From: an uncultured Devosia sp.
GTDB lineage: Bacteria > Pseudomonadota > Alphaproteobacteria > Rhizobiales > Devosiaceae
DNA length: 64,000 nt
Assembly (NCBI RefSeq): GCF_913055165.1
Contig: NZ_CAJXJS010000015.1
Span: 276 to 64,275 of the forward strand
Direction of reading: 5' to 3'
Part shown: one piece after another, positions 1 through 64,000 of the stretch
Numbering within the stretch: position 1 is the stretch's first letter
Layout of the letters: each line of letters begins with the position of its first letter
Position numbers and translations under genes: made by a program
The notes under the pieces: model-generated
The model's input: the letters and a program-made list of their open reading frames with translations, nothing else
Databases searched by the model: none
Told to the model about the DNA's origin: nothing

Positions 1-1614
1 ATCCTCCGCGCTCTCCGCCTGGTGCTACTGGCCCTGCCGTTCCTGCTGCTGCCGAACAGCGCCATCCGCGCGCAGGAGGCAGCAACCGACATTCCGGCCG
101 CGATCCAGGCCATGGGCGAAGCAAGTCTCAAGGAACTGCAGCAGATCGTCGCCGACCTCGCCGCCACCGGCAGCGATAGCGTCGTTCCCGCCCTGACCGC
201 CCTGGGCGCCGGCAATCTCTACCTCGACGAAACTTCCGGCACCGTGCTGATCGAACGCGGCTCGACCTATCTCGACCCGATTTCCGGCGAACCCGTGGAA
301 CTGGGCGCCGATGCCGACCTTTCAAAAATCCGCGTCAATAACGGCCTGAGGCGCGATATCGCCGCCGCCCTCGCCGGCATGACATTGATGAGCGACAATC
401 CATCGCGTCGCCTCACGGCTGCGCAGGGCTTTCTGGCCAATCCAGACCCGGCCAACATCCCGCTGCTCGACGAAGCCATTGCCGCCGAAACCGACGCCAA
501 TGTGCTCAAGGCCATGCAGGCGGCGCGCGCTGTGACCATCCTGGGCGACGGCGAGCAGAGCGTTGAAGACCGGCAGGCCGCCGTGCCGCTCGTCGCCTCG
601 GGCGCCGGTCGCAACGCCTTGACCATTCTCAACTCTGCGCTCAATGGCGCGCCAGAAGAGCTGGTGCCTACAATTCACTCGGCCATCGCGGGCCTTGAAC
701 AGGAACGCGCCATCTGGGGCGCCCTGCAGAATGTCTGGTTTGGCCTGTCACTAGGCTCCGTGCTGTTGCTGGCCGCCATTGGCCTGGCCATCACCTTCGG
801 GGTCATGGGCGTCATCAACATGGCGCACGGCGAAATGGTGATGCTGGGCGCCTACACCACATTCATCGTGCAGCTTGTCATCCGCCAGAATTTTCCGGGC
901 CTGCTCGACTATTCCCTGCTCATCGCCCTGCCCTGCGCCTTCCTCGTCACCGGGGCGATCGGTGTCGGCATCGAACGCGGCATCATCCGCTGGCTCTATG
1001 GCCGGCCGCTGGAAACCCTGCTCGCCACCTGGGGCCTGTCGCTGATCCTGCAACAAACGGTGCGCTCGATCTTCGGGCCAACCAACCAGATGGTGATCGC
1101 CCCAACATGGATGGCCGGCTCGACTGAATTCTTCGGTCTTTCCATCACCTATGGCCGCTTCTGGATCGTGATTTTCGCGCTGATCGTCTTCTTCATGCTG
1201 CTGCTGATCCTCAACCGCACACCGCTGGGCCTGCAGATGCGGGCGGTGACGCAGAACCGCCGCATGGCTTCGGCCATGGGCATCCGTACCCCCTTTGTCG
1301 ACGCCATGACTTTTGGCCTCGGTTCCGGCATTGCCGGTCTCGCCGGCGTAGCCCTGACCCAGATCGACAACATCTCCCCGAACCTGGGGCAGAACTACAT
1401 CATCGACAGCTTCATGGTCGTCGTGTTTGGCGGGGTGGGTAATCTCTGGGGCACGCTTGTGGGCGCGCTGACGCTGGGCGTCGCCAACAAGTTCCTCGAA
1501 CCCTATGCCGGCGCAGTGCTCGGCAAGATCCTGATCCTCGTCCTCATCATCCTCTTCATCCAGCGGCGTCCGCGGGGCCTGTTCGCCCTCAAGGGCCGGG
1601 CGGTGGAACAATGA
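1..1614 (+). CDS. urtB: Urea ABC transporter permease UrtB, 5'-truncated by the window edge (frame open from base 1; ORF track starts at GTG 22)
   Basis: C-terminal LivH-type permease (GLSLGSVLLLAAIGLAITFGVMGVINMAHGE) with a long N-terminal periplasmic extension. First gene of a 4-gene run upstream of urease. Confidence 0.92.
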   Translation: MLRALRLVLLALPFLLLPNSAIRAQEAATDIPAAIQAMGEASLKELQQIVADLAATGSDSVVPALTALGAGNLYLDETSGTVLIERGSTYLDPISGEPVELGADADLSKIRVNNGLRRDIAAALAGMTLMSDNPSRRLTAAQGFLANPDPANIPLLDEAIAAETDANVLKAMQAARAVTILGDGEQSVEDRQAAVPLVASGAGRNALTILNSALNGAPEELVPTIHSAIAGLEQERAIWGALQNVWFGLSLGSVLLLAAIGLAITFGVMGVINMAHGEMVMLGAYTTFIVQLVIRQNFPGLLDYSLLIALPCAFLVTGAIGVGIERGIIRWLYGRPLETLLATWGLSLILQQTVRSIFGPTNQMVIAPTWMAGSTEFFGLSITYGRFWIVIFALIVFFMLLLILNRTPLGLQMRAVTQNRRMASAMGIRTPFVDAMTFGLGSGIAGLAGVALTQIDNISPNLGQNYIIDSFMVVVFGGVGNLWGTLVGALTLGVANKFLEPYAGAVLGKILILVLIILFIQRRPRGLFALKGRAVEQ

Positions 1615-57213: not shown

Positions 57214-57227
57214 TTGACAGAGGTCAA
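57214..57227. promoter_or_regulatory. FNR/FixK-type box 2 (for ftsH)
   Basis: TTGAC-AGAG-GTCAA. Confidence 0.78.
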
Positions 57228-60869: not shown

Positions 60870-60883
60870 TTGATGGTGGTCAA
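60870..60883. promoter_or_regulatory. FNR/FixK-type box 3 (for groEL)
   Basis: TTGAT-GGTG-GTCAA. Confidence 0.75.
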
Positions 60884-61066: not shown

Positions 61067-61080
61067 TTGACGCCGGTCAA
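61067..61080. promoter_or_regulatory. FNR/FixK-type box 4 (for DUF883)
   Basis: TTGAC-GCCG-GTCAA. Confidence 0.78.
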
Positions 61081-61460: not shown

Positions 61461-61622
61461 CCCGGCCCCAGCTCAAGCATTGGATGACACCGGCGCCCTG
61501 GACACTCTGGGGCGCCGGCATAGTCATGTAATTTCGCTCTAGGGCCGATAATCCACGGGCCCAGGCGCGGCCGATCCGAGACGTAGATCAGCACGACGAG
61601 TCGATGGTCTTGTGTTTCATTT

Positions 61623-61636
61623 TTGACGGTCGTCAA
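61623..61636. promoter_or_regulatory. FNR/FixK-type box 5 (for the E1 operon)
   Basis: TTGAC-GGTC-GTCAA. Confidence 0.78.
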
Positions 61637-61690: not shown

Positions 61691-62902
61691 ATGCACCGTG
61701 AGACCGATACTGATTGCCAATCGTCCGAGCCGGGATTTTCGCCGGGACGGCGCACCTTCCTCAAGATTTCGGTCCTGGCCGGCGCGGCGGCGACAATCTC
61801 CAGCACTGTGGCCTATGCCGCTGGCGAAAGCGGGTTCTGGGCCAAGGATCTGGAAGATGAGCAACTCGTCGACATGTACCGACGCATCCTCCGCATCCGC
61901 TGGCACGAGCGGACCATGGCCGACAAGATGCTCACCGACCCCACCTATCGCGGCTACAACCACTTCTATGCCGGCCAGGAGGCGGTTGCGGTTGGCATCT
62001 GCTCGGCGCTGCGGAATGAAGGCGGCGTGGAGAAGGCGGACCTGGTCTATTCGACCCACCGCCCCACCGGTCACGCTATAGCCAAGGGCATCGATCTCAA
62101 GCGCATGTGCGCCGAGAACGACTTCCGGGCCACCGGCCTCAACAACGGCTATGCGGCGGAAATGCATATTTCGGACCCGACCATCGGGTTCATGGGGGCC
62201 GATGGCATGATCGGCCCGGGTCCGGTGATCGCAACAGGATCGGCCCTGGCTATCCAGGCCCGTGGGAGCGGCCAAGTGGTCGTCAACTTCGGTGGCGACG
62301 GGACCTATGCGACACCGCATTTCCATTCGGCGTTGAACAATTCCACGCTGCTCAAGCTGCCATTCATCTACGTGATCGAGAACAATCTCTACCACCAGTA
62401 CGCCCACTATTCCCTGTCCGTCCCGATGAAGGACATTGCCACGGCCGCAGAGCCCTATGGCATTCCGGGCATCGTGGTGGACGGCCAGGACGTGATGCAG
62501 GTCTACAATGCCGCCAAGATCGCGGTAGACAGGGCGCGGGCTGGTGAGGGCCCGACCCTGATCGAGGCCAAGACCTACCGCTATTACAACCACTGGGGCG
62601 CTCCCGGTGCCACCCCCGGCGAGCTTGGTGCCTTCGGCTACGATCCGCTGGCGATCTCCTCATTCCGGCCCGAGCGCGAACTGCGCGCCTGGATGCAACG
62701 CGATCCCGTCGACATCTCGCGCCGGATCCTCATCGATTGGGGCCTGCTCGATGACGCCGAAGCCGATGCCATCGAAACCGAAGTGAAAGCCGAGGTCACC
62801 GAGGCCTTTGCCTGGGCCGCCGAGCAGCCGCTCTGCAGGCCTGAGGACGGTCTCAAGCACGTATTCGTCGACGGCGAAGTTGAAGCCCGCCAGCTGGCGT
62901 GA
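61691..62902 (+). CDS. TPP-dependent dehydrogenase E1 alpha subunit (AcoA/PdhA-like) with a twin-arginine leader
   Basis: H.YAGQEAVAVG, STHRP.GH, TPP motif GDG-X26-NN, GEGPTLIEAKTYRY; N-terminal GRRTFLK...AYA. ATG 61691 preceded by GGAGGA. Confidence 0.9.
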   Translation: MHRETDTDCQSSEPGFSPGRRTFLKISVLAGAAATISSTVAYAAGESGFWAKDLEDEQLVDMYRRILRIRWHERTMADKMLTDPTYRGYNHFYAGQEAVAVGICSALRNEGGVEKADLVYSTHRPTGHAIAKGIDLKRMCAENDFRATGLNNGYAAEMHISDPTIGFMGADGMIGPGPVIATGSALAIQARGSGQVVVNFGGDGTYATPHFHSALNNSTLLKLPFIYVIENNLYHQYAHYSLSVPMKDIATAAEPYGIPGIVVDGQDVMQVYNAAKIAVDRARAGEGPTLIEAKTYRYYNHWGAPGATPGELGAFGYDPLAISSFRPERELRAWMQRDPVDISRRILIDWGLLDDAEADAIETEVKAEVTEAFAWAAEQPLCRPEDGLKHVFVDGEVEARQLA

Positions 62903-62922: not shown

Positions 62923-63894
62923 ATGACTGAGAAAAGCTGGATGTACGCCGTCCTTGAGGCCGTGCAGTACGAGATGCGCCAGGATCCGAATATGCTCTGG
63001 CTGTTCGAGCTGACGGCTCCCGTGGCGTCCAATCCCGGGCTCCCGGTGATCAATCTGGAAACAGAATTCACCCGCAAGCGGGTCATCAACACCGGCATCG
63101 ATGAAATGTGGATGGTAGCAGCGACGCTGGGCGCCGGTCTCGCCGGCTCGAAAGCGGCCACCTATATTCCCTATCAGGGGGCGGCTATGCCCTTTCAAAT
63201 CATCCAGAACCATGCCGGCAAGTTGCGCCACATGACTGGTGGAGTGGCCTCCATGCCGGTGGTGTTCGTCATGGAGATGACAGGCCAGACCCCGGGCTTT
63301 GCCGGGCAACATTCCGACTACGAGATCGATTCCTATTACATGCACATCCCGGGCGTGAAGACGGTCGTGCCGTCCACCCCCTACGATGCCAAGGGCATGA
63401 TGGCGTCGGCGCTGCGCGACCCCAATCCTGTGGTCTTCCTTTATCCGGCGGGCCTGCGCGAACTCGTAGCGGAGGTGCCGGACGAGCAGTATGACGTGCC
63501 ACTCGACAAGGCGGCGGTGCTGGCAGAAGGCACCGATCTCACCATAGTGGGCTCGGGTGCCGGCATGCCCGAAATCCTCAAGGCGGCCGACGCGCTCAAA
63601 GCCGACGGGATGAGCGTGGAAGTCATCGACTTGCGGTCGCTCAAGCCCATGGACACCGAGACACTCGTGGCCTCGGTGGGCAAGACCAAGAAGCTGCTCG
63701 CGGTCGATCAAACCTACTACACGCTGGGCCCCGCGGCCGAAGTGGTGGCCCGCGTGGCGGAAAATGTCGACGGCGCCCGCTTCAAGCGCATCGCATTTCC
63801 GGACGCCCCGCCCCCCGCCTCTCCTGAAATGTTCCTCTGGATGCGGGTCAATGCCGACCACATCGCCAATGCGGCGCGCAAGCTGGTTGGTTAG
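62923..63894 (+). CDS. TPP-dependent dehydrogenase E1 beta subunit (AcoB/PdhB-like)
   Basis: NTGIDE, GQHSD, PG.KTVVPSTPYDAKG, D.NPVVF, EVIDLRSLKP.D, SV.KT. Confidence 0.9.
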   Translation: MTEKSWMYAVLEAVQYEMRQDPNMLWLFELTAPVASNPGLPVINLETEFTRKRVINTGIDEMWMVAATLGAGLAGSKAATYIPYQGAAMPFQIIQNHAGKLRHMTGGVASMPVVFVMEMTGQTPGFAGQHSDYEIDSYYMHIPGVKTVVPSTPYDAKGMMASALRDPNPVVFLYPAGLRELVAEVPDEQYDVPLDKAAVLAEGTDLTIVGSGAGMPEILKAADALKADGMSVEVIDLRSLKPMDTETLVASVGKTKKLLAVDQTYYTLGPAAEVVARVAENVDGARFKRIAFPDAPPPASPEMFLWMRVNADHIANAARKLVG

Positions 63895-63914: not shown

Positions 63915-64000
63915 ATGAACTACCAGGATAGAGAGGGCGAACAATCGCCGGCTGGCGACGCCCGGTGCCCGCAGTGCGGCAGCGCCGCGATCGGCCCCAC
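63915..64000 (+). CDS. 5' fragment of the next gene, starting with a CxxC knuckle
   Basis: GGAGAGG then MNYQDREGEQSPAGDARCPQCGSAAIGP..., open to the window end. Confidence 0.55.
   Translation, partial: MNYQDREGEQSPAGDARCPQCGSAAIGP

Follow-up and report, generated by a model that had tools for sequence, protein, structure and literature searches.

A predicted Tat-exported clade of E1-like thiamine diphosphate enzymes with rebuilt lipoyl-facing loops, identified in Devosia

The E1 enzymes of 2-oxo-acid dehydrogenases are, in textbook accounts, cytoplasmic or mitochondrial proteins in which the E2 subunit, through its lipoyl arm, defines the second half-reaction. In a stretch of 64,000 nucleotides of contig NZ_CAJXJS010000015.1 from an uncultured Devosia sp. 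(hereinafter the window), we analyzed a pair of adjacent genes for the alpha and beta chains of an E1-like, thiamine diphosphate (ThDP)-binding enzyme, the alpha chain of which begins with a predicted twin-arginine translocation (Tat) signal. According to the original prediction, the active-site motifs of this enzyme are rewired such that the cofactor chemistry is retained, the lipoyl channel is remodelled and either the activity might not depend on an E2 or the substrate might be a new one. We conclude that these motif changes are, on balance, probably the signature of a constrained family within a monophyletic clade of Tat-exported alpha2beta2 E1 enzymes that has left the E1-E2-E3 complex and would act by the periplasmic mechanism outlined below. 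Throughout this clade, the first half-reaction appears to be kept, an export signal is present, and exactly the loops that receive the lipoyl domain have been replaced; in two sub-clades, the E1 is firmly tied to cytochromes of its own and to a pair for acyl transfer across the membrane. If the prediction is true, the enzyme would be the first E1 with ThDP chemistry to operate in the periplasm, and also the first to be coupled with cytochromes of the c type.

The E1 alpha gene (61691..62902, plus strand) encodes a protein of 403 amino acids, numbered here from the ATG at 61691. A longer open reading frame starting at 61604 was rejected, and the ATG at 61691 is taken to be the true start because the homologues are 398-411 amino acids long, all of them shorter than the product of the longer frame, because a GGAGGA ribosome-binding site precedes this ATG, and because the longer frame encloses a FixK/FNR-type box. 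The E1 beta gene (62923..63894, plus strand; 323 amino acids, no signal peptide) starts 20 nucleotides after the alpha stop codon. The alpha chain matches the Pfam family E1_dh (8e-54), and the beta chain matches Transket_pyr and Transketolase_C (1.6e-17 and 1.8e-29) as well as the PDB chain 3duf_B (2e-47). The AlphaFold model of alpha has a pLDDT of 82.6, with residues 1-49, the signal region, disordered (pLDDT <50), and its top Foldseek matches are all E1 alpha chains (best 3dva_A and 1umb_A), with TM scores of 0.75-0.82 at 24-30% identity. The NCBIfam cut-offs for E1 alpha and beta of pyruvate dehydrogenase (PDH) are all missed widely (TIGR03182, 219 bits vs 394; TIGR03181, 172 vs 411; PRK09212, 189 vs 321; PRK11892, 182 vs 454). 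The pair lies outside the PDH, AcoA and BKD equivalog families, and its first half-reaction is clearly E1-like.

The residues of both chains were mapped onto CHARACTERISED enzymes, with the G. stearothermophilus E1p (hereinafter Gst) as the reference, and conservation was assessed in 81 non-identical orthologues that are 67-96% identical, with columns conserved at 98% or more considered invariant. From before the GDG motif to the catalytic His, the alpha chain aligns with Gst alpha without gaps, at an offset of +30 (D203 = D173, T208/P209 = Q178/G179, H210 = D180, S213 = E183, E230 = Q200, N232 = N202, Q236 = I206, H301 = H271 and W302 = T272); in human E1p, the counterparts of H301 and W302 are H263 and Ser264 (phosphorylation site 1), respectively. 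The ThDP/Mg motif is present as GDG-X26-NN (G202-D203-G204 to N231-N232), within the X(24-27) spacing. It opens the segment GDGTYATPHFHSALN (alpha 202-216; 62294..62338, plus strand; ungapped alignment to 1w85_A and 1w88_A), where it is followed by a remodelled interface helix, and closes with ENN, which contains the Mg ligand N232 and, together with the inner active-site loop delineated by conservation and the alignment to Gst, spans 62378..62416 (plus strand). The catalytic H301, which is 100% conserved, lies between N300 and W302 in YRYYNHWG (alpha 296-303; 62576..62599, plus strand). In the beta chain, E29 corresponds to Gst E28b; E61 of the GIDE motif (residues 58-61; 63094..63105, plus strand) to E59b, the ThDP-activating Glu; and H130 of GQHSD (residues 128-132; 63304..63318, plus strand) to H128b, the last equivalence being from the HMMER alignment, relative to which the MAFFT placement is one residue off. 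D203, N232, H301, beta E61 and beta H130 all align with Gst without gaps, and each is at least 98% conserved in the family.

The roles of these residues are known from Gst, in which E59b serves ThDP activation, H128b contacts pyruvate and is the second-step proton donor, H271a contacts the thiazole sulfur and helps acetyl transfer to lipoate, and Mg is held by D173, N202 and Q200 (Pei 2008, PMC2663715). Thus, of the features quoted in the original prediction, all of which are present (GDGTYATPHFHSALN, YRYYNHWG and the insertion after it, and FELTA, GIDE and QHS in beta), the conserved alpha His, beta activating Glu and beta His hold up as the counterparts of Gst H271a, E59b and H128b, and so does the claim that the cofactor chemistry is retained. 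The predicted decarboxylating machinery, that is, the ThDP/Mg motif, the activating Glu and the catalytic His residues of both chains, is intact. The fold, too, is shared with the alpha2beta2 E1 enzymes of PDH and the branched-chain 2-oxo-acid dehydrogenase (BCKDH), namely Gst (1w85/3duf), T. thermophilus E1b (1um9) and human E1 (1ni4), as are the spacing of the beta Glu/beta His/alpha His triad and the lack of insertions or deletions between positions D173 and H271. The differences from these enzymes, besides the low identity, are the Tat signal, an outer loop longer by 12-15 residues (vs human and T. thermophilus), a different inner loop, altered proton-wire positions, an Ala in place of F85b, and the lack of an E2/E3 partner.

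In the alignment, the inner and outer loops and the proton-wire residues, on which PDH and BCKDH rely for the second half-reaction, are rebuilt. In Gst, the ordering of the inner and outer loops controls whether the lipoyl domain is recognised, the PDH inner loop guards the enamine against side-reactions with a second carbonyl, and the H271A and I206A variants have increased activity with 2,6-dichlorophenolindophenol (DCPIP) and decreased PDH activity (Pei 2008, PMC2663715). In human E1p, disorder of the His loop (phosphorylation loop A) prevents binding of the lipoyl domain, according to the summary of Kato 2008 in PMC3397410. A proton wire linking the two ThDPs has been proposed to include alpha D180 and E183 together with beta E88 and D91 (bioRxiv 10.1101/2022.05.17.492373), and PDB entry 1w88 is, by its title, the D180N,E183Q variant of Gst. 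Here, the four proton-wire positions read H/S/P/Q, with F85b replaced by Ala, E88b by Pro and D91b by Gln.

Three rebuilt elements can be delineated. The first is the helix after the GDG motif that carries the proton-wire positions. The second is the inner loop LYHQYAHYSL (alpha 233-242; 62387-62416, plus strand), which corresponds to the Gst inner loop 203-212, RFAISTPVEK; it escaped the original prediction and is as invariant as the segments that were flagged. The third is the outer loop with the insertion APGATPGELGAFGYDPLAISSF (alpha 304-325; 62600..62665, plus strand), opposite which there are gaps of 15 residues in T. thermophilus and 12 residues in human E1 alpha; this insertion had been noticed but ended too early, its actual end being 55 nucleotides further downstream. 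The proposed remodelling of the lipoyl channel is borne out for the His loop, which is the outer loop at the lipoyl entrance and is lengthened, and fails for the GDG-proximal motif, which belongs to the proton-wire helix and not to the channel. In the beta chain, FELTA (residues 28-32; 63004-63018, plus strand) does replace GEDV, and together with PVASNPGLPVINLE (63004..63060, plus strand) it stands in for the usual GEDVG..GGVF segment; the Glu of GEDV is kept as E29.

The close relatives of the alpha chain number in the hundreds, at 67-96% identity, and come from Hyphomicrobiales, Rhodobacterales, Burkholderiales, Rhodocyclaceae and some non-proteobacterial metagenome-assembled genomes (MAGs); Chelativorans and Ramlibacter lithotrophicus are examples of carriers in culture. 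Against a background of 45% invariant positions in mature alpha, the identity of YRYYNHWG across the orthologues is 99.7%, and invariant columns account for 28 of the 35 in the outer loop (296-330), a density matched by only 6 of 322 sliding windows (top 2%), 16 of the 22 in the insertion and 9 of the 10 in the inner loop. As judged from these alignments, the flagged changes are not noise: they have become fixed, and strong purifying selection acts on them.

To place these residues, the 81 family members were compared with 125 other E1 alpha proteins with Tat signals and with 87 non-Tat, canonical representatives of 50%-identity clusters. The position equivalent to E183 is Glu in 98% of the canonical proteins, Ser, Gly or Ala in the wider Tat set and Ser, Ala or Gly in the family; the G179 equivalent is Gly in 94%, mixed, and Pro in 100%, respectively. 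The residue before the catalytic His is Gly in 70% of the canonical proteins, Asp in 95% of the wider Tat set and Asn in all family members, and the residue after it is S/T/Y/F/H/V/A, S/Y/A and invariably Trp. The spacing between this His and the following Arg has a mode of 8 (range 4-16) in the canonical proteins, and is 18-19 in the wider Tat set and 24 in the family.

The consensus of the non-Tat representatives, GDG-A(81%)..G(94%).F.H(79%)E(98%)..N, agrees with the PdhA/AcoA consensus on which the original comparison relied, and that comparison holds for the AcoA/PdhA-like majority: both the GDGA..G.FHE motif and the common short G-H-x loop of these proteins are absent here. It does not extend to all characterised E2-coupled enzymes. 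Gst has GDGGTSQGDFYEGIN at the GDG motif and Y-G-P-H-T around the His, T. thermophilus has GDGATSEGDWYAGIN and Y-G-P-H-S, with Ala at the E183 position in E1b, and human PDH has Y-H-G-H-S; therefore, the 'GHS'/'FHE' consensus is that of one subfamily and no hallmark of E2 coupling. Accordingly, of the two replacements next to the His, that of Gly by Asn carries little weight and that of Ser by Trp is unusual. When the flagged changes were sought in characterised E2-coupled enzymes, some of the positions proved to vary there as well, and none of the characterised or canonical sequences examined has the insertion in the outer loop, the Trp or this inner-loop sequence. For mutagenesis and annotation, residue handles are provided by H301/W302, residues 233-242 (inner loop), residues 304-325 (insertion) and the missing Glu at the E183 position.

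The signal region of alpha (61691..61819, plus strand) consists of SPGRRTFLK, a hydrophobic h-region and an AYA|A cleavage site at residues 41-43, on a cofactor-binding protein. The twin Arg is invariant in the 81 orthologues, the remainder of the signal region is variable, and the combination of twin Arg, hydrophobic stretch and AxA is kept across the clade down to 38% identity. In a tree of 165 sequences, all Tat-type E1 alpha proteins form one clade with a support of 0.995, and 59 of its 65 tips contain the twin Arg. The clade comprises at least three groups: group 1, the family of the window; group A (P0128-type); and group B (P0337-type). All three have the core insertion GxxGxKxGxxGAFGL and have lost the Glu; accordingly, the core insertion appears to be tied to the exit from the E2 complex and the entry into export rather than to one partner. 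Confined to group 1 are six extra loop residues (GYDPLAIsSF vs GLPY), W302, N300, P209 and the His/Tyr-rich inner loop, which may reflect the partners or the substrate of this group.

It is extremely unlikely that the pair is an ordinary cytoplasmic E1 paralogue, similar to AcoAB or PDH, that borrows an E2 encoded elsewhere in the genome, so that the changes would reflect specificity for another 2-oxo acid and the twin Arg would be fortuitous. The databases do name the alpha relatives pyruvate or acetoin dehydrogenase alpha, the Pfam TAT_signal match is weak (0.0053) and below the threshold, and some of the flagged positions vary in E2-coupled enzymes; against this reading stand the conservation of the signal elements in the orthologues and across the clade, the wide failure at the equivalog cut-offs, and a genomic context in which the pair never adjoins an E2 gene and is always located beside genes for exported partners. 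AcoAB is a cytoplasmic enzyme whose partner is the lipoylated E2 AcoC. Several databases apply the name AcoA to the window's protein, AcoAB ('acetoin:DCPIP oxidoreductase') can be assayed with artificial acceptors, and it is one of the AcoA/PdhA-like majority of E1 alpha proteins, which has in common with the family a His at the Gst Y102 position, found in 87% of the non-Tat representatives. The Devosia genome encodes two E2 proteins, each next to a canonical E1 (one of the 2-oxoglutarate dehydrogenase type and one of the PDH type), and a single Tat-type E1.

In group 1, the E1 pair belongs to a cassette of seven genes that encode, in this order, E1 alpha (Tat), E1 beta, a YgiT-type zinc ribbon protein, two paralogous exported CxxCH proteins (CytA and CytB), a DltB-like membrane-bound O-acyltransferase (MBOAT) and a membrane-anchored DltD-like protein. 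Identical genes in the identical order were found in 67 of the 83 loci, and the remaining 16 are cut by contig ends, so that none is unexplained, while the genes that flank the cassette vary between genomes. The only rearrangement among the 67 complete cassettes is in an Alkalilacustris MAG (L084, 12776-14247), in which the genes for the MBOAT and the DltD-like protein have the reverse orientation with respect to those for the E1 and the cytochromes. In group A, which is about 40% identical, all seven parts are present in all 14 loci with sufficient DNA, with two loci (L089 and L127) split into divergent operons. No E2 gene was detected in the 67 complete cassettes of group 1 or in the 14 group A loci. 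Independence from E2, as originally predicted, is well supported as a reading of the genomes, mostly by this context and by the loop insertion found throughout the clade; the arguments from the Gly/Ser flanks and from the GDG motif, which had been offered for it, are weak or mis-assigned.

The exported CxxCH proteins are the most likely electron acceptors. A CxxCH motif in exported proteins is the attachment site of haem c. The CytA and CytB genes are located on the same contig beyond the window (L003, 4514-5062 and 5086-5655); signal peptides are visible in both proteins, and C122, C125, H126 and H150 are invariant across 53 CytA and CytB sequences. In Pfam searches with these relatives, 28 of the 53 weakly match Cytochrome_CBB3 (best 6e-5) and 18 match Cytochrom_C, and the window genome's own CxxCH proteins have no Pfam match. 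The group 1 cytochromes are extended at the N-terminus by a helical domain of some 90 residues that contains an invariant F-x-P-x-GG motif and an invariant W and has no recognisable relatives; the group A cytochromes are single-domain proteins (104-147 amino acids) without it. The arrangement resembles in outline that of the SorAB sulfite dehydrogenase and related types of periplasmic dehydrogenase, in which a Tat-exported, cofactor-loaded subunit is likewise combined with a small monohaem cytochrome c acceptor. CytB has a weak match to the SorB family (1.2e-3, below the cut-off) and a local, not significant fold match to 4pw9_B; however, the likeness of the cytochromes does not reach the threshold of any family, and the catalytic subunits, which contain molybdenum and ThDP, respectively, are unrelated.

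The MBOAT protein is most similar to DltB (PDB 6bug_C, 2.5e-25; TIGR04091, 146 bits) and keeps the histidines of the RWH and WHxG motifs. The DltD-like protein contains an N-terminal membrane anchor, an invariant serine in GASH and a DxDH motif, and matches DltD weakly. Both members of the pair score far below the equivalog cut-offs. In contrast to the Dlt system for D-alanylation, there is no DltA or DltC here, the host is Gram-negative, and the genes for an E1 and cytochromes accompany the pair.

Under the mechanism that we propose, the heterotetramer would be assembled with ThDP in the cytoplasm and exported by the Tat system through the alpha signal, with beta carried along. In the periplasm, a 2-oxo acid would be decarboxylated to a hydroxyalkyl-ThDP enamine; beta H130, whose Gst counterpart contacts the pyruvate carboxylate, is retained. 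The enamine would then be re-oxidised by a non-lipoyl acceptor, most likely CytA and CytB acting as monohaem c-type cytochromes in one-electron steps, and the acyl-ThDP might be hydrolysed or handed over to the DltD-like/MBOAT pair. Some ThDP enzymes, pyruvate:ferredoxin oxidoreductase (PFOR) and pyruvate oxidase (PoxB) among them, oxidise the hydroxyethyl-ThDP enamine without lipoamide, via Fe-S clusters or flavin. They demonstrate that oxidative decarboxylation can proceed without an E2, although these enzymes, which reside in the cytoplasm or at the membrane, differ in fold and family and contain internal redox cofactors that have no counterpart in the E1. The most specific version, a ThDP-dependent 2-oxoacid:cytochrome c oxidoreductase in which the rebuilt loops, with the Trp and the His/Tyr-rich inner loop, would form the exit for electrons and the acyl group, and acyl-ThDP made in a periplasm free of ATP and CoA would feed the DltD-like/MBOAT pair, is a speculative proposal that we consider unlikely in its entirety. 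If true, it could supply activated acyl groups for O-acylation of the envelope, or else a route carrying the acyl group inward; we know of no acyl donor for MBOAT systems of the AlgI/PatA type. A full-text search of the open literature returned nothing relevant on a Tat-dependent or periplasmic E1, on an MBOAT beside a ThDP enzyme, or on DltBD beside cytochromes.

Several observations weigh against our interpretation. The Pro before the His, the Thr after it and the Ala at the E183 position (T. thermophilus) show that these sites vary in characterised E2-coupled enzymes too. Both loops are of intermediate confidence in the alpha-only model (pLDDT 62-80), and export, substrate and electron acceptor of the Tat-type E1 are all predicted. 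The CytB model, with a pLDDT of 91.8, yielded no significant fold match in the PDB (Foldseek, all E > 1). Finally, no cytochrome or MBOAT gene was found in the 41 group B loci, about nine of which reach approximately 5-6 kb past beta, and given that group B has the core insertion without the cytochromes, the insertion was rejected as a cytochrome-docking device.

The group B loci also bear on the possibility of a non-oxidative activity, with the enzyme acting as a ThDP lyase, carboligase or decarboxylase that cleaves or forms an acyloin or diketone or transfers a two-carbon unit, with its product or substrate tied to the DltB/DltD-like relay and the cytochromes serving otherwise. The retention of the core insertion in group B is compatible with such an activity, as are the synteny of the MBOAT and DltD-like genes, which is as strict as that of the cytochrome genes, and the complete replacement of the inner loop, the guard against enamine side-reactions in PDH; transfer of two-carbon units is known for some E2-free E1-like pairs. 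We nevertheless regard this alternative as improbable, given that two invariant CxxCH proteins are encoded between the E1 and the MBOAT in every complete cassette of two sub-clades and that alpha H301, which in PDH and BCKDH aids the oxidative half-reaction, is fully conserved.

The lack of a significant fold match could also be accommodated if the CxxCH proteins were not haem carriers but disulfide surrogates of lipoamide, such that the enamine would reduce the CxxC and the resulting S-acyl cysteine would be processed by the DltD-like/MBOAT pair. This scheme copies the chemistry between E1 and the lipoyl group and gives the acyl relay a defined donor. It is, however, very unlikely considering that the His after the second Cys and the distal second His are invariant in both paralogues, that over half of the relatives match the class-I cytochrome c family Cytochrome_CBB3 and 18 match Cytochrom_C, and that CxxCH in exported proteins is in general a haem c signature.

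Returning to the Tat-exported, E2-free E1, the conditions of its use may be indicated by a FixK/FNR-type box, TTGACGGTCGTCAA (61623..61636, plus strand), identified by a scan for TTGA-N6-TCAA about 62 nucleotides 5' of the alpha start codon. The box suggests use at low oxygen, conditions in which the pool of cytochrome c would be drained by a cbb3 oxidase or by enzymes of denitrification. There are five such boxes in the window (619-632, 57214-57227, 60870-60883, 61067-61080 and 61623-61636), compared with 0.55 expected by chance, and four of them are located within 57-62 kb, before ftsH, groEL, a DUF883 gene and the E1 operon. The FixK-linked literature search gave one match, which concerns an ordinary PDH.

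The zinc ribbon gene starts at 63915 (63915..64000, plus strand; 108 amino acids, cut at the window end) and is assigned to the YgiT type by TIGR03831 (5.8e-9); a PDB sequence search with its product gave no match. The group B loci contain alpha and beta, and an adjacent zinc ribbon gene in only 8 of the 20 with room for it, which weakens the case for this protein as a universal third subunit. The group B proteins (L091 and L160-L199, from metagenomes) are Tat alpha/beta pairs with an alpha of 398 amino acids, and some are labelled Planctomycetota. In one example (L091), the neighbourhood contains genes for a sulfatase, a glycosidase (glycoside hydrolase) and a sulfotransferase, which suggests a role in the periplasmic breakdown of sulfated polysaccharides, perhaps with keto-uronic acids as substrates.

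When 300 genomes drawn evenly from the phylum were searched with a profile of the Tat clade, there was no other strong Tat-type match: the Devosia genome itself scored 450 bits, and the others scored at most 336 bits, with matches that do not extend over the profile's signal region. Only 144 stretches were confirmed among 185,579 species genomes. Such a rare and patchy distribution, combined with an identity of 67-96% between members from different classes, suggests that the cassette as a whole has spread horizontally. Downstream of the window on the same contig (L003, 4191-8129), the rest of the cassette is followed by genes for a DUF302 protein and an IclR-type regulator. In Chelativorans sp. 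(L004, CP120361.1), the cassette adjoins fixI/fixS-type genes and genes for a thioredoxin, MgtC, a BON-domain protein, a host-attachment protein and HSP20, a hypoxia and stress neighbourhood that resembles that of the window although the individual genes differ.

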